This document shows positions 2,561 to 9,203 of a DNA stretch of 9,878 nt, one piece after another; the stretch's first letter is position 1, and each line of letters starts with the position of its first letter. Position numbers and translations under genes: made by a program. The notes beneath the pieces are model-generated. The model saw nothing but the letters and a program-made list of their open reading frames with translations. It was not told the origin of the DNA and made no database searches. Source of the DNA: a virus (Duplodnaviria; Heunggongvirae; Uroviricota; Caudoviricetes); IMG/VR virus record IMGVR_UViG_2703718826_000003, positions 1 through 9,878 of that record; one strand, written 5' to 3'.

Positions 2561-2586
2561 TTCTCTTAAACCAAGGTTTAGGATTG
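2561..2586. other. cix/gix-type crossover site for the adjacent serine invertase
   Basis: TTCTCTTAAACC-AA-GGTTTAGGATTG: 26-bp imperfect dyad (9 of 12 half-site positions symmetric) around a central AA, with the AAACC..GGTTT core shared by hix/gix/cix/pix sites. It overlaps the invertase stop codon (2578-2580) and the tail fibre frame reads through it. Confidence 0.8.
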
Positions 2587-3138
2587 AAATGATGACGCCG
2601 GAAACTTCTTATAAAGCGTGGAAACAGCCACATCATAGATGATTGCAACCTGCTTACGGGGGATGCCCTTCTCGAGCAATCGCCGCATTTGCTGCCATGT
2701 TTCTTCTTGGTATTTAGGCCGACGCCCACCTATACGACCTTCTGCGCGAGCTGCATCAAGTCCAGCGCGTGTACGTTCAACGATAAGCTCACGTTCCATT
2801 TCTGCCAGCGCCCCCATTACGTGAAAGAAAAAGCGCCCCATTGGTGTACTGGTGTCGATGGAGTCAGTGAGACTCCGGAAGTTAATGCCTCTGTCACGCA
2901 GCTCTTCCACCAGCACAACTAAGTGACGCATGCTGCGCCCAAGACGATCTAACTTCCATACGACTAGGGTGTCACCTCTGGAAAGCATACGGAGAACCTT
3001 TTTTAACCCAGGGCGTTCAGCCTTTTTGCCGCTCGCCTTGTCCTCAAAAATTAGCTTACATCCTGCGCTTTCAAGGGCATTTCGTTGTAAAGCAGTGTTT
3101 TGTTCATTTGTTGATACGCGTACATAGCCAATTAGCAT
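2578..3138 (-). CDS. cin: Serine DNA invertase, Cin/Gin/Pin/Hin family (186 aa)
   Basis: N-terminus [22 protein letters not shown] with catalytic Ser in the RVSTNEQ motif, conserved [15 protein letters not shown] and GRIGGRRPK segments, and a C-terminal helix-turn-helix-like [13 protein letters not shown]. Length 186 aa, same as P1 Cin as I recall. Gene ends within the crossover site. Confidence 0.93.
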
Positions 3139-3265
3139 ATTTTCTGCTCACCATAGTTATTCATAGCAAGCTGCGGATTTTAATTAACAGAAACCAGTGT
3201 GTGTGGAAATCACAAAGTGCATACCGTGCCCCAATGATGTTTTATTGAAAAGCGGGGTTACTTTA
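3139..3265. promoter_or_regulatory. Divergent intergenic control region between the invertase gene and the plus-strand operon (promoters not resolved)
   Basis: 127-bp AT-rich spacer between divergent starts. One weak sigma70-like candidate for the invertase on the minus strand: -35 TTAATT (complement of 3182-3187), 16-bp spacer, -10 TATGAA (complement of 3160-3165). No confident plus-strand promoter identified by eye. Confidence 0.25.
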
Positions 3266-3547
3266 ATGTTTGATTTAACCATATTTTTTATAACCATCCT
3301 TGGAGGCGTGCATTCGTTTCTGAATGGGGTTCGTGAAAAACGTTACGAAGCGTCATGCAGGCAATTGATGGCCGAGTGTATTGCTGCCGTACTTGCAGGC
3401 TTTATAGGCATGTATTTCGCGGAATATAAGGGTATGGATGAAAGTCTTCAGAATTGCGTGACTATTATTTGCAGCATCAATAACAGGCTCATTCTTGAAA
3501 AGTTACAAAGGATTATCGATTCGTACCTCAGTAGCAATGCCTCTTAA
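3266..3547 (+). CDS. Small holin-like membrane protein (two predicted transmembrane helices); possibly LydC-like
   Basis: ORF track gives 3197-3547 from a GTG with no ribosome-binding site. ATG at 3266 is preceded by GGGG 8 nt upstream and gives a 93-aa protein with two hydrophobic segments (LTIFFITILGGVHSFL, IAAVLAGFIGMYFAEY). Start and function uncertain. Confidence 0.5.
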   Translation: MFDLTIFFITILGGVHSFLNGVREKRYEASCRQLMAECIAAVLAGFIGMYFAEYKGMDESLQNCVTIICSINNRLILEKLQRIIDSYLSSNAS

Positions 3548-3587
3548 GCAACAAATGACCGGTTGAGAAGTTACTTTGCATACCATT

Positions 3588-3609
3588 ACCTCCTGACAAC
3601 GTAGGAGGG
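3588..3609 (+). promoter_or_regulatory. Hairpin pairing the Shine-Dalgarno sequence of the downstream holin gene with an upstream anti-SD
   Basis: CCTCCT (3589-3594) and AGGAGG (3603-3608) form a 6-bp stem with an 8-nt loop; AGGAGG is the ribosome-binding site 6 nt upstream of the GTG start at 3615. Confidence 0.4.
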
Positions 3610-3614
3610 AACTT

Positions 3615-3944
3615 GTGCTTGACACACAGGAATTAGCTCCAGTTGCTATTGCGCTCCTGCTTTCAGTAATTGGTGGGATAGGCACGTTCCTGATGGATGT
3701 CCGAGACGGTCGCCAGTCTGGCAATTTGTTGGGATTGGTTACGGAGATCTTTGTTGCAGTGACAGCTGGCGCGGTGGCGTACCTATTGGGGCAACACGAG
3801 GGCTGGGAGTTATCAATTACGTACTTAATGGTAACGATAGCCAGCAATAACGGTCATGAGGTGATTTCAGGGATGAAACGAGTGAATATCGATAGCATTC
3901 TGAATGTTCTTACAAGTTTGGTGAAAAAGGGAGGCGGGAAATGA
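3615..3944 (+). CDS. lydA: Holin (LydA-like), 109 aa
   Basis: GTG start with strong AGGAGG ribosome-binding site; hydrophobic segments LAPVAIALLLSVIGGIGTFL and LLGLVTEIFVAVTAGAVAYLL, charged C-terminal tail KKGGGK; size and position match P1 lydA as I recall it. Stop overlaps the next start (ATGA). Confidence 0.7.
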   Translation: MLDTQELAPVAIALLLSVIGGIGTFLMDVRDGRQSGNLLGLVTEIFVAVTAGAVAYLLGQHEGWELSITYLMVTIASNNGHEVISGMKRVNIDSILNVLTSLVKKGGGK

Positions 3945-4384
3945 TTGGCTGGGGTGTATGCGTTCTTGCGTTAGCCTTAGCCGATCGCTATTTGCTAAAA
4001 CGCAAGGACATCACGCATTTAGAACTTGGTGATGTGGAAATTAAACCGGGTTTCATCCGGGTGCCGTTCAAATACCGGTCTAAATTCCCGTTTTTGCGCG
4101 GCGCAACAGTCAGATATTGGATCCGCGATGTTCAGAAGCCGACGACAGTGATTGAAGGCGAACAACGTTGTTTGACGTCGGCTGAACAGGGCGAAAACAG
4201 TGAATGGTTGTACATACCCACTGAATATATGGGTAAAGGAGAGCGACTGTGGCATTTCAACGTCATGGTTACGCATGGCGACTCGTTCATTAACCCGTTG
4301 TATCGGATTTTCCCTGTTACTCAGCAAATCCGCAGAAGTTACGTAATAAATCTCGCACAGGATGTGTCAGATGACGAAAAATAA
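3941..4384 (+). CDS. lydB: LydB-like protein (putative antiholin / lysis regulator), 147 aa, N-terminal membrane anchor
   Basis: ATG overlaps the holin stop (ATGA at 3941-3944) with an AGGGAGG ribosome-binding site inside the 3' end of the holin gene; N-terminal hydrophobic stretch MIGWGVCVLALALA then a soluble domain. Assignment rests on size and order relative to P1. Confidence 0.55.
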   Translation: MIGWGVCVLALALADRYLLKRKDITHLELGDVEIKPGFIRVPFKYRSKFPFLRGATVRYWIRDVQKPTTVIEGEQRCLTSAEQGENSEWLYIPTEYMGKGERLWHFNVMVTHGDSFINPLYRIFPVTQQIRRSYVINLAQDVSDDEK

Positions 4385-4973
4385 GTATGCAACGGTCGAT
4401 TTTGACCAGGTTAATGAAAAGGGGCTGAAATCCCTTATCGCGGCGATCAATAAAACCGGGGTTACGGTAATTGAGGTTGACTCCAGCAACCGCGCAACAA
4501 CGAAAGATGGCGTTAAAGTTAAAACCGCAAAGCTGGTTCTTAACGACGGACAAATCCTTGCCATACAGGTAAACGATACTGGCGATATATCGTCTGTGAA
4601 ACTGAATGGAAAAGCTATTCCTAACGCTCAGTCGCCGGATATCAAGACGCTTGGTACCGTCATGGGACAGGCGGCCCGCAAAAACTCCGCAAAATTCCAG
4701 AAATCACTGATCGCCAAAGCGAAGCGTGTAGCCAATCCGGTAGACAAGAAACCGGCAGTTAAATCCAACTTTCAGCGCCTGCAAGAAGCAAAACAGCGGA
4801 ATGCTCAGGTGGTTGCCGCTTATAAGTCCGCGCAGAATTCGGTGTCTTTCAATCAACAGCAGATCACTGATTTGCGGGCGAAGCTGGATAAGGAGACGGG
4901 CCGACTCAATAACGAAAAGGCACGGAATGGCGAACTCAAACGTCGTCTTAAGCAACTGAAAGCAGGAAATTAA
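4371..4973 (+). CDS. Hdf/DarA-family protein (short paralogue), about 200 aa, C-terminal coiled coil
   Basis: ATG at 4371 has AGGA 8 nt upstream (the ORF-track start at 4362 has none). Contains the KNSAKFQ motif followed by a predicted coiled coil; the same motif and architecture recur in the next protein. Confidence 0.6.
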   Translation: MTKNKYATVDFDQVNEKGLKSLIAAINKTGVTVIEVDSSNRATTKDGVKVKTAKLVLNDGQILAIQVNDTGDISSVKLNGKAIPNAQSPDIKTLGTVMGQAARKNSAKFQKSLIAKAKRVANPVDKKPAVKSNFQRLQEAKQRNAQVVAAYKSAQNSVSFNQQQITDLRAKLDKETGRLNNEKARNGELKRRLKQLKAGN

Positions 4974-4974
4974 C

Positions 4975-6006
4975 ATGGAACAGTTCAATATCAATAAAGG
5001 GGTGACGATCAAGCCTGGGCTTGACGTGCTTCCCCCGCCAGTGACTGATGATGAATATCGCGCATTAATGGCCGGTGAGGACCGCTATCTGATGACGGAA
5101 TCCAACACCCTGGAGGAAATCGAGGCTACGTTCTTCTATGACACGCCGATCCACTGGTGTGCTACGGATTTACTGGAGGCGATTAGTTCTACTCGTTTGC
5201 AGTTACACCGGACCATGCAGGCATTTGTCCGGGCATTGAACCAGAAGCTGAATGGCACCGGAATCTCTGCGGGGAGTGATAAAACGGGGGATGTGGCCCA
5301 GAGCGGCGCGCGCGCGATCGGCGGTGCTGAAATTGGCCGGGCACGGAACGTTAACGGGCTGCCGGTCCTGCCAGCCATTATTCCGCTCAGTGATGGTCAG
5401 ACTATCAGCATTCTGTTTCATAGCCCGACAGCGGAAAACCGGATCACCAATAGCGATACGCTGGTTGCTTTCCAGTTCTTACTGAATAAAAAAGACGTTA
5501 CTCACACCGTTGCTCCGATGAGTGGACGTGATATGACGCTGGCGCAGGTCACCATGAAACTTGCCAACCTTGCAGAGAAAAACTCGGCAAAATTCCAGCG
5601 TGCGCAGAAGAAGAAAAAAGCCCTGGTTGATGAAATAACCCAACTACAGGCTGACAGTGACCAGAAAGAGGATGCCATGAGCGACCTCGCGGATCAGGTG
5701 GCAGCGGTAGAAGGGCAGAAGGTAGATCTGGAGCAGAAAATTAACGCTGTTGCATCGGAAGCGGATTCTCTTTATGAAGAGAATGAGCGTTTGCAGACGG
5801 AGATTGATCAGCTCAATCGCACTGGTGGGCGCGAAACCATTGCTCCTGCGGGGATGACTGGTGGACACTCTCGCGCGATGACGGATCGCCTTGCAAGTAT
5901 CAAAAATCGTATGCATATGAACGGGGAAGTGACGCTCAGTAATGGTGCATCAATGAAGCAATTCATTGAGGACGGTGAAGGGTATATCCAGTTAACTGGG
6001 ATGTGA
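4975..6006 (+). CDS. DarA-like protein (antirestriction / head-morphogenesis family), 343 aa
   Basis: ATG 4975 with AGGA 7 nt upstream, 1 nt after the previous stop. Contains KNSAKFQ followed by a long heptad-like coiled coil (LVDEITQLQADSDQKEDAMSDLADQVAAVEGQKVDLEQKINAV...). Naming by analogy to the P1 darA operon from memory. Confidence 0.6.
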   Translation: MEQFNINKGVTIKPGLDVLPPPVTDDEYRALMAGEDRYLMTESNTLEEIEATFFYDTPIHWCATDLLEAISSTRLQLHRTMQAFVRALNQKLNGTGISAGSDKTGDVAQSGARAIGGAEIGRARNVNGLPVLPAIIPLSDGQTISILFHSPTAENRITNSDTLVAFQFLLNKKDVTHTVAPMSGRDMTLAQVTMKLANLAEKNSAKFQRAQKKKKALVDEITQLQADSDQKEDAMSDLADQVAAVEGQKVDLEQKINAVASEADSLYEENERLQTEIDQLNRTGGRETIAPAGMTGGHSRAMTDRLASIKNRMHMNGEVTLSNGASMKQFIEDGEGYIQLTGM

Positions 6007-7391
6007 AGACGCTGGATAAACAGGTTGATGTAACTCCCGATGAAGATGCTGTTATGCAGAAAATCAGTGGTGGCGTCTCCATCGCCGGGATTAACGACAT
6101 CATTTCCTGTGACGATTTCTACCGTTTCCAGCAGCGCGGCATGATCAAAATCACTGACTCATACGGCGTTCAGACTACAGAGTCAGGCTATAGCATTGAT
6201 TTTGTTGGTACCTATACGGACCCACTGAAGCATGCGGTTTACCCGGATCGCCGTGACGGCGCGCTGAAGTCGTCAATTGCAAAATGGGTGCTTGGTATGA
6301 TGTCGGAAGGGAATAACCGCCAGATCCGTTCGGCAGAAACATTCCTGGTTGAACTGTTTGGCTCCAATTATGGCGATGTAATCGCGTCATACGGAGATAC
6401 GCTATCCCCTGAAGCAATTCAGGAGAAAATAGCGGATGCGATCGCCAGAATGCCGGAAAAAACAAGCCAGGGGGCTACTCGTAACGGGGATTCTGAACTT
6501 GAAGTCACCAATGCCATTTTCGGTACCAATGAGTTCCGGGCGTCAGATTATGAGATCACCACAGCACAGTTTGGCACCATTGGCATTTACAGCAATAAAG
6601 CCGAGATCAAGCAGGCAATGGACGCAGCAAGCGCGCGCATCGCAGCAGAACGGGAAGCCAATCTGAATCATGCAGTCGCCGCACTGACTCAATCGTGGGT
6701 AACAGCAATCAGGGAGGCCGCCACCACAGGGAAAATCACACCTGCAATTGCGGATGTCGTAAACGACGGCTCTAAATTTATGGATGCCTATCAAATGGAT
6801 GCGGTGCAGTTGCCATCAGCCTATGGCCAACTCAGCTATCGCATGACCTACAACCTGGTATCAATGTTTACTGACCTTGCCATCCTTGGGCTGGTGGACC
6901 TTAACGAGGTTACGCCGGAATTACTCAGCATGCGCAAGAATCATGTTGAGATATTGCAGAGAATTAACACGGTTCTTGCCGGGCGCACCGATGAAGAGAA
7001 ACAGGCCGACGCTGATCGGATAAACCTGGCCCTAGGCAACATCACGGAGGAAGAAATTGCCGCCAGAAACGAGAAACAAGAAGAGTTATCATCAATACAG
7101 GGTGATGCCACCAGCATAGCTCAGTCTCTTGGGCTGAATTATCGCGTATCCACCGCCGACCTGAAGATGATGTACGCACCAAAATTCGCCGCTGGCGAGG
7201 TATTTGGGCTTCAGGAAGCCTCCGGCATGAAAGGGGTTCTTTTCCGTGCGAAAGACGCAATCAAGGCGAAATTCGGCGCTCGCTGGTTGCCAGCGAAGGC
7301 GAAGAACAGCGACTTCCCAGGTAACTGGTGGATTATCGAGACAAAACACAACGTGGCGGACGTTCTGGCCGTCATCCAACAATACGCATAA
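6003..7391 (+). CDS. Hypothetical protein of the Dar-like operon, 462 aa (possibly the C-terminal portion or partner of DarA)
   Basis: Long ORF with GTG start overlapping the upstream stop (ATGTGA at 6001-6006); coding-like composition; no motif I can assign. Confidence 0.6.
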   Translation: MKTLDKQVDVTPDEDAVMQKISGGVSIAGINDIISCDDFYRFQQRGMIKITDSYGVQTTESGYSIDFVGTYTDPLKHAVYPDRRDGALKSSIAKWVLGMMSEGNNRQIRSAETFLVELFGSNYGDVIASYGDTLSPEAIQEKIADAIARMPEKTSQGATRNGDSELEVTNAIFGTNEFRASDYEITTAQFGTIGIYSNKAEIKQAMDAASARIAAEREANLNHAVAALTQSWVTAIREAATTGKITPAIADVVNDGSKFMDAYQMDAVQLPSAYGQLSYRMTYNLVSMFTDLAILGLVDLNEVTPELLSMRKNHVEILQRINTVLAGRTDEEKQADADRINLALGNITEEEIAARNEKQEELSSIQGDATSIAQSLGLNYRVSTADLKMMYAPKFAAGEVFGLQEASGMKGVLFRAKDAIKAKFGARWLPAKAKNSDFPGNWWIIETKHNVADVLAVIQQYA

Positions 7392-7424: not shown

Positions 7425-7865
7425 ATGGCCACATTATCTGATACAATAAAACCGAATAAAACATATCTTGAGGCGGTGCTGCGTACGGCGTTGTTAGGAA
7501 AGACAGAAGACGAATACGTTGATTTCTTCCTGTCAGGGCTACGCGGGCGATTACTGAAAAATCCCCGCCTGTACCGCAGCTATGGTCCATACTGGCCGGA
7601 AATTAAAAAATTATTACTGGAGCGCGGTTATGGTAATTTCGGTCGTCTCGTTGACCGTGACGTTCGCAAAATTTACCGTTATGACCGTCCGGCGCTGACG
7701 CTCATAGCCGCGACGCTCTACAGCCAGGAGCGTTTTGATAATGGTCAGATATACTCAGCCTGGCATTTACTGCCAGTGCCTGAAGAGGTTGACGACCAGG
7801 ACTATGAGTTTGAGTCTTACGATTTGGAAGTTGAAGCCTTGGCACAGGCTGGAGAGAAAACTTGA
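7425..7865 (+). CDS. Hypothetical protein, 146 aa, strongly acidic C-terminal tail
   Basis: ATG start after the hairpin; C-terminus PVPEEVDDQDYEFESYDLEVEALAQAGE; stop overlaps the next start (TTGA). Confidence 0.55.
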   Translation: MATLSDTIKPNKTYLEAVLRTALLGKTEDEYVDFFLSGLRGRLLKNPRLYRSYGPYWPEIKKLLLERGYGNFGRLVDRDVRKIYRYDRPALTLIAATLYSQERFDNGQIYSAWHLLPVPEEVDDQDYEFESYDLEVEALAQAGEKT

Positions 7866-8162: not shown

Positions 8163-9203
8163 GTGTTAGTTAAATATATAGGCGAGAGTTATATGGAAAA
8201 ACCTTGGCCGGGCATGCACATTAGAACATCTTGTCTGGAGGATGGTTTCTTTAGAGCAACGCAACCAAAGTATCTTAATGATCCGTCGAGTGAGTCGCGA
8301 CTTCTTCCATTTTTTAATAAATTTTCACCAGCCGATTACGCATGGGCTAGAAATGAATTTAAGAAAATGCAACGAGATCCATCTTATGTCCCATCTATAC
8401 AAGAGTTAGAGTATTATTTAAAACCTTGCGGGAAACGATACGGAGAGGATTTTCCACACTTGTTAATCAATGAAGGTTTTACCTCAATGGATTCATATGA
8501 TGAATCTAAACTCCAAGAAATAGTAACGTACCTTAACGATTATTTAGTAGAAGCCGTAAGCTGTCATCTTGGTGTATTCTCTCTATCAAAAAGTGATTGC
8601 AATCTACACATGTGGACTCATTATGCATCGATAGGAAAGGGGTTTGCTGTAGTTTTCGATGAAACACACGATTTTTTCAAAATATATAGGCCGTGTGATG
8701 TTAGTTATAATCCAGAAGATAGAGCATCTGTAACCTATTATAAAGGCGCTGTGCGATTTAATGGCTATCCTGCGCCATCGAGGAATATAGATATAAAGAA
8801 TAAAGATAATACATTGCATGGGATCTTAAATCGAGATTCAGTTCGCGAGCTTTTTATTAATAGGCTCCTTTATACAAAAGGTGAAGAGTGGCTTCCTGAA
8901 AATGAAAGTAGAATTATTTTTCCTTTAGCTGATTGCGAGAGAAAGATAGGAAGTATTGTCTCTCCATCGATTGATGATTGCCTATTAAATGAGTATCCTG
9001 ATGTTTTTCATGACTATCATGAAATTAACTTAAAGAAAATTCCTTTTTCTGCATTCAAGCAAATTACCTTAGGGTATAACATGACTGAAAAAGATAAAAA
9101 TATAATTTTAGATAAAGTTAGTTCGAATAAAGAATTGTCTCACGTCAACGTATTATATTCAAAACTTGATATATACGGAAAGGTTGTGGTTAAGCCCATG
9201 TAA
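8163..9203 (+). CDS. AT-rich cargo gene, 346-aa protein with DUF2971-like motifs; function unknown
   Basis: GC content visibly lower than flanking phage genes. Motifs LVKYIG...FRATQPKYLNDPSSE and SCHLGVFSLS...NLHMWTHYASIGKGFAVVFDE resemble the DUF2971 family as I recall it (N-terminal LYKY, NDP-E, MW-HYA). Start is GTG 8163 or ATG 8193. Confidence 0.6.
   Translation: MLVKYIGESYMEKPWPGMHIRTSCLEDGFFRATQPKYLNDPSSESRLLPFFNKFSPADYAWARNEFKKMQRDPSYVPSIQELEYYLKPCGKRYGEDFPHLLINEGFTSMDSYDESKLQEIVTYLNDYLVEAVSCHLGVFSLSKSDCNLHMWTHYASIGKGFAVVFDETHDFFKIYRPCDVSYNPEDRASVTYYKGAVRFNGYPAPSRNIDIKNKDNTLHGILNRDSVRELFINRLLYTKGEEWLPENESRIIFPLADCERKIGSIVSPSIDDCLLNEYPDVFHDYHEINLKKIPFSAFKQITLGYNMTEKDKNIILDKVSSNKELSHVNVLYSKLDIYGKVVVKPM

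Follow-up and report, generated by a model that had tools for sequence, protein, structure and literature searches.

A hairpin over the lydA ribosome-binding site in the late promoter of the P1 dar operon: a possible translational insulator dependent on transcript start

On which RNA would a hairpin that can close over the ribosome-binding site of a holin gene act, and what would open it? The question is raised by a stretch of DNA of 9,878 nucleotides, referred to below as the window, in which the sequence CCTCCT at 3589-3594 is complementary in all six bases to AGGAGG at 3603-3608, the Shine-Dalgarno (SD) sequence of a holin-like gene, with 8 nt between the two. The initial annotation of the window had described this complementarity, which we confirmed in the sequence, and had proposed that the resulting hairpin blocks ribosome access and gates holin translation as a timer of lysis. 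Here we examine the hairpin together with the genes around it, the promoter that it overlaps and the corresponding regions of P1 relatives.

The lydA locus and its hairpin

Positions 3000-5000 of the window displayed 97% identity to phage P1, and also to many P1-like plasmid prophages. The window belongs to a P1-like plasmid prophage carrying cin, lydC, lydA, lydB, hdf and a truncated darA. The holin-like gene is lydA, encoding the P1 holin that has already been studied experimentally (PMC9025707). The genes relevant to this study are as follows.

2578-3138, minus strand: cin, found together with tail-fibre genes
3266-3547, plus strand: lydC, a holin-like paralogue (annotated lydC of P1; Pfam Phage_holin_3_3 match)
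3615-3944, plus strand: lydA, holin of 109 aa with a GTG start (99% identity to P1 LydA; Pfam PF16083 match)
3941-4384, plus strand: lydB, antiholin (Pfam LydB match, E = 8e-104)
4362-4973, plus strand: hdf

The lydC gene immediately precedes lydA on the same strand, and the start of lydB overlaps the stop of lydA. AGGAGG had been taken for the sole strong ribosome-binding site of the operon, but this is wrong; lydB is preceded by GGAGG at 3930-3934, 6 nt before its ATG.

Concerning the region downstream of hdf, 4975-7391 contains a darA-like open reading frame (plus strand) of only 343 aa, continuing directly into the 3' end of the P1 darB sequence. The junction is located near 5993-5996, and ulx comes next at 7425-7865. 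Compared with the P1 map, the junction implies that ddrA, ddrB, ssb, lyz, lydD, pro, prt and most of darB have been lost, and two plasmids (NZ_LT883139.1 and NZ_CP010179.1) are 100% identical to the window over the junction. Taking into account the lost genes and these identical plasmids, the source looks like a defective P1-like plasmid that has retained lydA and lydB with no endolysin nearby. Downstream of ulx, a 346-aa open reading frame with a DUF2971 domain occupies 8163-9203. This stretch has a continuous match in some P1 isolates (MH422554), and matches the reference P1 record (AF234173) only in two pieces.

The primary structure of the lydA leader was then examined. A repeat search extended the two arms of the hairpin to TTACCTCCT and AGGAGGGAA, which are complementary at 8 of 9 positions. 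The GTG start codon is found at 3615, 6 nt past the SD. When the region was folded with ViennaRNA, an additional G3595-U3602 wobble gave 7 pairs and a 6-nt loop, and an outer stem was formed between GCAUA (3578-3582) and UGUGC (3614-3618), burying the GUG start codon. The elements of the predicted structure are listed below; LPdar is the late promoter described in the next section.

3578-3582, plus strand: 5' strand of the outer stem, GCAUA, in the spacer/-10 region of LPdar (minimum-energy and centroid folds)
3586-3594, plus strand: anti-SD arm TTACCTCCT with the core CCTCCT at 3589-3594, beginning at the final base of the -10 hexamer and reaching about +1
3595-3602, plus strand: loop GACAACGT, which the pair G3595/U3602 may close to 6 nt
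3603-3611, plus strand: SD arm AGGAGGGAA with the core AGGAGG at 3603-3608
3614-3618, plus strand: 3' strand of the outer stem, UGUGC, which holds the GUG start

The predicted free energy of the inner hairpin in isolation was -9.1 kcal/mol, and that of the structure including the outer stem was -14.1 kcal/mol. Folding of 3570-3630, which had been put forward as a check on the hairpin, did produce both the stem and the outer stem (-15.8 kcal/mol), but the stability of the fold was only moderately beyond chance (z = -2.0), with 7 of 200 shuffles of the region folding equally well. An Rfam scan of 3100-4100 gave no match at an E of 1 or less. A terminator scan of 3100-4000 detected 0 terminator-like sites, and hence none between lydC and lydA. 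A role of the hairpin itself as an intrinsic terminator or attenuator was considered and rejected; the stem is followed by GAACUUGUG, which has no U tract, and the scan was empty. The sequence ACCUCCU within the anti-SD arm also matches the 3' tail of 16S rRNA.

The late promoter LPdar and the RNA on which the hairpin would act

The DNA that encodes the 5' arms of the hairpin is also promoter DNA. The elements of LPdar are as follows.

3568-3576, plus strand: -22 box AAGTTACTT, the same as the feature that AF234172 and AJ000741 annotate, and aligning with other P1 late promoters
3581-3586, plus strand: -10 hexamer TACCAT, annotated in P1
3593-3595, plus strand: probable start of the late transcript, at the 7th to 9th nt past the -10 hexamer; the box centre at 3572 then falls at -22

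The -22 box is a 9-bp inverted repeat annotated as Lpa-binding, and the spacer tgca between the box and the -10 hexamer gives a 4-nt spacing equal to that in five other late promoters. LPdar thus has what is found at the Lpa-dependent late promoters of P1, namely an AAGTnACTT-like 9-bp repeat, a spacing of about 4 nt, a TAnnnT-like -10 sequence and a gene close downstream. Based on standard RNA polymerase geometry, and on the name "-22" with the box centred at 3572, late transcripts should start at about 3593-3595. With such a start, the late lydA mRNA should contain neither the inner nor the outer 5' arm. Both 5' arms (3578-3582 and 3586-3594) fall within the DNA of the LPdar region spanned by the -22 box and the -10 hexamer and its immediate downstream flank, and from the curated annotation and this geometry it is very likely that LPdar overlaps the 5' arm of the hairpin. 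In the literature covered, which did not extend to the primary P1 papers, there was no mapped transcription start for LPdar and no mention of a lydA hairpin.

We thus examined the predicted folding of the lydA leader as a function of the 5' end of the transcript. With 5' ends from 3266 to 3589, the SD was paired with upstream sequence at a probability of about 1.0, leaving a probability of 0.00 of being unpaired with all 3' ends folded. The occlusion of ribosome access that had been proposed for this hairpin is therefore what is predicted, in every context folded, for RNA containing both arms. The GUG start codon was likewise closed in transcripts with 5' ends at or before 3589 (predicted probability of being unpaired, 0.01-0.05). 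With 5' ends from 3590 to 3597, the local hairpin was gone and the SD no longer paired upstream, the probability of an unpaired SD rising to 0.15-0.39. The cost of opening the SD was about 10-12 kcal/mol in read-through RNA versus 2-8 kcal/mol in late RNA, with a mean difference of 5.6 kcal/mol over 12 sequence contexts. There are strong grounds to conclude that the stem is real and will form on any RNA in which both arms are present.

Late RNA itself was predicted to retain some structure over the initiation region, as follows.

3612-3630, plus strand: alternative hairpin of late RNA, CUUGUG with CACAGG, in which the GUG is still paired (predicted fold)
3654-3660, plus strand: CUCCUGC in codons 14-16, a partner for weaker long-range pairing of the SD in late RNA

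The former consists of 6 bp between the GUG start and codons 4-6, and the sequence ACACAGGAA within 3612-3630 is invariant, third codon positions included, in all lineages aligned. These predicted folds raise the possibility that LydA initiation may be throttled even on late mRNA.

The mode of regulation suggested in the initial annotation, in which translation of the upstream region opens the stem, does not agree with the arrangement of the reading frames. The lydC stop codon (3545-3547) lies 42 nt before the anti-SD, outside the reach of a terminating ribosome, and the sole other reading frame between lydC and the anti-SD is a 3-codon frame beginning with an ATG at 3556 and stopping at 3567. 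Since the lydC stop is this far away and no open reading frame crosses the arm, upstream translation cannot open the stem. Translational coupling by way of an anti-SD opened by upstream ribosomes was rejected on the same account, there being no open reading frame that is translated through the arm or ends within reach. A timer acting on the late message fared no better. Late lydA mRNA, which is what drives lysis, is expected to begin at about 3593-3595 and so to be without the anti-SD, and therefore the hairpin should act only on RNA initiated upstream.

An alternative would be that the hairpin resides within the functional late lydA mRNA after all, and that upstream translation or RNA cleavage opens the ribosome-binding site and times lysis. 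The stem is stable enough to block initiation, and the initiation region is predicted to be partly closed even in late RNA, both of which are in line with this possibility. It would however demand a transcription start at or before 3589, at a distance of 3 nt or less from the end of the -10 hexamer at 3586, while the annotated promoter geometry sets +1 at about 3593-3595. The 42 nt separating the lydC stop from the anti-SD, with no open reading frame crossing, and the absence of an Rfam match in the region scanned also speak against it, and a stem of this length falls well short of what RNase III requires. We regard a gate on the late mRNA as very unlikely.

The reading that we prefer, and hold to be evenly poised between true and false, is that the hairpin acts as a translational insulator, its effect set by where the transcript begins, and forms part of the late promoter of the P1 dar operon. 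RNA reading through from upstream, either from the lydC promoter or from any other source, an upstream insertion included, in the lysogenic or early state or on a rearranged plasmid, would carry both arms. The anti-SD would be transcribed first, 8 nt ahead of the SD, and the local stem would close at once. In this read-through RNA the stem would bury AGGAGG and the outer stem would bury the GUG, and the lethal holin LydA would not be made. When Lpa activates LPdar, RNA polymerase would start at about 3593-3595, inside the 5' arm, and the late mRNA, devoid of both the anti-SD and the outer 5' strand, would allow lydA to be translated. Translation on the late mRNA would still be moderated by the GUG start and the weaker downstream pairings. 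We have shown the complementarity, the predicted folds and the annotated position of the promoter, and also that neither a terminator nor a translated frame spans the arm.

As for the origin of read-through RNA, lydC is preceded by a putative early promoter (PMC9025707), and lydC would be the expected source. With no terminator in between and lydC co-directional behind this reported promoter, it is possible that upstream RNA reads through into lydA. We infer the exact transcription start, the existence of the read-through RNA and its effect on translation. Leaky expression of lydA is lethal (PMC9025707), and an insulator makes biological sense because even leaky expression of the gene kills. 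Taking into account that LydA kills at slight expression, that the prophage lives as a low-copy plasmid and that no terminator is present before lydA, P1 would need a means to silence the gene until Lpa fires. On the other hand, lydC too is holin-like, and cloning it is lethal, so that the case for keeping a holin off in the early state is less strong. The geometry is also partly forced; with the promoter about 20 nt from the SD, any nearby upstream complement of the SD must overlap the promoter.

If the hairpin does this job, it would explain how read-through from lydC, from insertion sequences and from rearrangements abutting the module is tolerated. Those who clone lydA or engineer P1 vectors would face expression that depends on the promoter making the RNA. 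The current picture of P1 lysis timing by Lpa, LydB and LydD would be left unchanged by the hairpin.

Relatives, other late promoters and the chance of a fortuitous match

Conservation of the leader was examined in 88 loci of the P1 lineage. These were identical through the promoter, leader and start, with the exception of two singletons outside the 6-bp core stem; one of these, A3588C, would extend the stem to a perfect 9 bp. As the flanks are equally invariant, the invariance of the stem says nothing specific about the stem. No covariation was found in the 88 leaders and the deeper lineages did not share the stem, and for these two reasons a covariance model was not built.

The boundaries of the conserved unit could be seen in mosaic plasmids. 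In several variants the sequence from the -22 box through lydA is identical and that just upstream of the box is mosaic, and in four loci (L004, L005, L006 and L091) homology among P1-like plasmids breaks at 3546-3567, just upstream of the box. Judging from this break, the promoter, leader and lydA act as a single module in recombination. In L006, a TnpB-type element is found just upstream of the lydA module. In L091, unrelated sequence abuts 3588, so that the late promoter is lost and the whole hairpin retained.

Scans for other lineages yielded 3 loci from genome contigs, and from viral contigs mostly 99%-identical copies of P1. LydA identity was 77% and 73% in Salmonella salamae, 71% in Cronobacter / K. 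aerogenes and 65% in Pantoea. In all of these the positions of the promoter and SD are kept, with unrelated sequence in place of CCTCCT. Upstream masking of the SD was no better than in shuffled sequences in the three sister lineages (fractions of 0.07-0.8, versus 0.005-0.06 in P1). In Cronobacter and S. salamae, a pairing between ACUUACCUU and GAGGUGAGU, with the anti-SD located upstream of the -22 box, was tried as a substitute and rejected, its opening energy being no better than that of shuffles. The gene order upstream also differs. In S. salamae, Cronobacter and one of the two Pantoea loci (L008, L009, L010 and L014, the last being the Pantoea locus), cin is directly upstream of lydA on the same strand and lydC is absent, whereas in P1 cin is on the opposite strand and lydC lies between cin and lydA. 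In the more distant D6 (43% LydA identity), a candidate late promoter is enclosed by a different hairpin, of 10 bp, that lies directly next to the SD. Its predicted masking difference was 4.6 kcal/mol (p = 0.05), with the D6 promoter assigned by inference.

We also compared the late promoters of P1 itself. When 104 annotated P1 genes were ranked by the SD masking added by the 50 nt upstream of position -22, pmgC was 1st, lydA 6th and pacA 11th, all of them first genes behind late promoters. The value of lydA was reached by 4 of 93 other P1 genes. As a class, the first genes behind late promoters showed no clear enrichment in SD masking, their ranks extending from 1 to 96 of 104. The two other promoters with a comparable arrangement are as follows.

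LPsit / pmgC (locus L007, 46576-46626), minus strand: downstream of the co-directional sim genes, with the strongest upstream-dependent SD masking of the 104 P1 genes
LPpac / pacA (locus L103, 42475-42531): ACGAAAG in the SD region of pacA has its complement, ACTTTCGT, in the -22 box and spacer of the promoter

At LPsit, the spacer and -10 hexamer read CTCGTAGAAT, and a perfect inverted copy of these 10 nt, ATTCTACGAG, overlaps the pmgC SD. At LPpac, only RNA that has read through from lpa is predicted to be masked, the difference being about 3.0 kcal/mol. When the real promoter positions were used, late promoters with a co-directional gene upstream had the five highest masking differences (in kcal/mol: sit, 10.7; dar, 5.6; pac, 3.0; hot, 2.0; gene 23, 1.8), and the differences of the four divergent promoters pro, lyz, 26 and pmgL were 0.85 or less. 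The two groups differed in a one-sided Mann-Whitney test (p = 0.012, n = 11), in which the classes were set post hoc and are confounded by leader length. One could suppose from this that P1-type phage-plasmids systematically build arms that mask ribosome-binding sites into Lpa-dependent late promoters lying behind genes expressed early or in the prophage, but we consider this rather unlikely. The cases would be lydC before lydA, sim before pmgC, lpa before pacA and par before gene 23. If it were true, promoter DNA would double as an insulator that silences lethal or untimely late proteins in a plasmid prophage with few terminators; the device known from T4 gene e would have been reinvented independently, and a general design rule for compact late promoters would follow.

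Another possibility is that the CCTCCT/SD complementarity is a chance match in the initially transcribed or discriminator region of a compact promoter-RBS module, one that was never selected and meets negligible read-through RNA. Short complements of this kind are not rare. The plus strand of the window harbours 40 perfect 6-bp hairpins, 13 of them GC-rich; 4 of 42 P1 genes have upstream sequence that complements their SD region perfectly over at least 6 nt, and among P1 genes a 6-bp complement is about a 1-in-20 event. The fold z-score was only -2.0, informative variation is absent inside the P1 lineage, and the anti-SD is missing in three sister lineages that retain the promoter and SD. A fortuitous match would nevertheless leave several features to coincidence. 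The stem, GC-rich and local, prevails in all predicted ensembles in which it occurs, the start codon is taken up by a second stem, and when the upstream sequence was shuffled, only 0.5-6% of shuffles masked the lydA SD as strongly. LPsit/pmgC and LPpac/pacA have the same architecture, and D6 has it in a different sequence. LydA, moreover, is lethal when leaky and no terminator shields its gene. We treat a chance match as a serious contender, if on balance a doubtful one. Whether the stem has been selected, and how important read-through RNA is, must be regarded as uncertain; there is no covariation, the sister lineages do not have the stem and a 6-bp match is not a very rare event.

There is also a slight chance, the smallest that we assign to any explanation, that the repeat serves at the level of DNA, as a protein-binding dyad over the +1 of LPdar, or on the other strand, where AGGAGG would serve a small antisense open reading frame. 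CCTCCT-N8-AGGAGG does constitute a 20-bp dyad centred just past +1. Its half-site centres are 14 bp apart, however, and the P1 record annotates neither a known operator nor C1 or Lpa at this position. On the minus strand (3528-3594), the complement of the anti-SD reads AGGAGG and is followed after 7 nt by an ATG and a 17-codon open reading frame antisense to the 3' end of lydC; the sequence AGGAGGTAATGGTATG provides a good SD spacing to the second ATG. This mini-frame runs into the mosaic sequence upstream of 3566, so that its product is not conserved, and it is probably not a gene.

Comparison with known systems

In phage lambda, the sdi stem-loop at the initiation region of the holin gene S tunes holin production. 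This stem-loop is part of the late mRNA, where it governs the ratio between two start codons, whose products are the holin S105 and the antiholin S107. The P1 arrangement differs from this in that lydA has a single GUG start, the antiholin is encoded by the separate gene lydB, and the stem is one that late mRNA should lack.

Within P1, the closest counterparts of LPdar are LPsit/pmgC and LPpac/pacA. At these promoters, as at LPdar, the SD region of the first gene finds a complement in the spacer, the -10 or the -22 sequence, and masking is predicted only in read-through RNA. The sequences and the positions of the arms are not those of LPdar, and the repeat at pmgC uses the -10 hexamer itself.

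Outside P1, a comparable device is known from phage T4. There, the initiation regions of the genes e, soc, 49 and I-TevI are closed by an inhibitory structure in the long early transcripts, and late promoters located inside the DNA of the 5' strand give rise to transcripts that lack this strand and are translated (PMC3014915). For gene e, translation differs about 100-fold between the two kinds of transcript (PMC3014915). P1 lydA resembles gene e in that the SD and start of a lysis gene are predicted to be sequestered in long transcripts initiated upstream, and in that a late promoter, here LPdar with a start placed by geometry, lies within the DNA of the 5' strand. The two differ in promoter type, which in T4 is recognized through gp55 with TATAAATA and in P1 by the sigma-70 RNA polymerase with Lpa, a -22 box and a -10 sequence. 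They also differ in the protected gene, an endolysin gene in T4 and a holin gene in P1. The P1 stem departs from an ideal comparison in not being conserved in sister lineages. We suggest that the lydA hairpin, if real, belongs to the same kind as that of T4 gene e and does not represent a separate one, in which case the T4 lysozyme paradigm would extend to a temperate phage-plasmid with a different late-transcription system.
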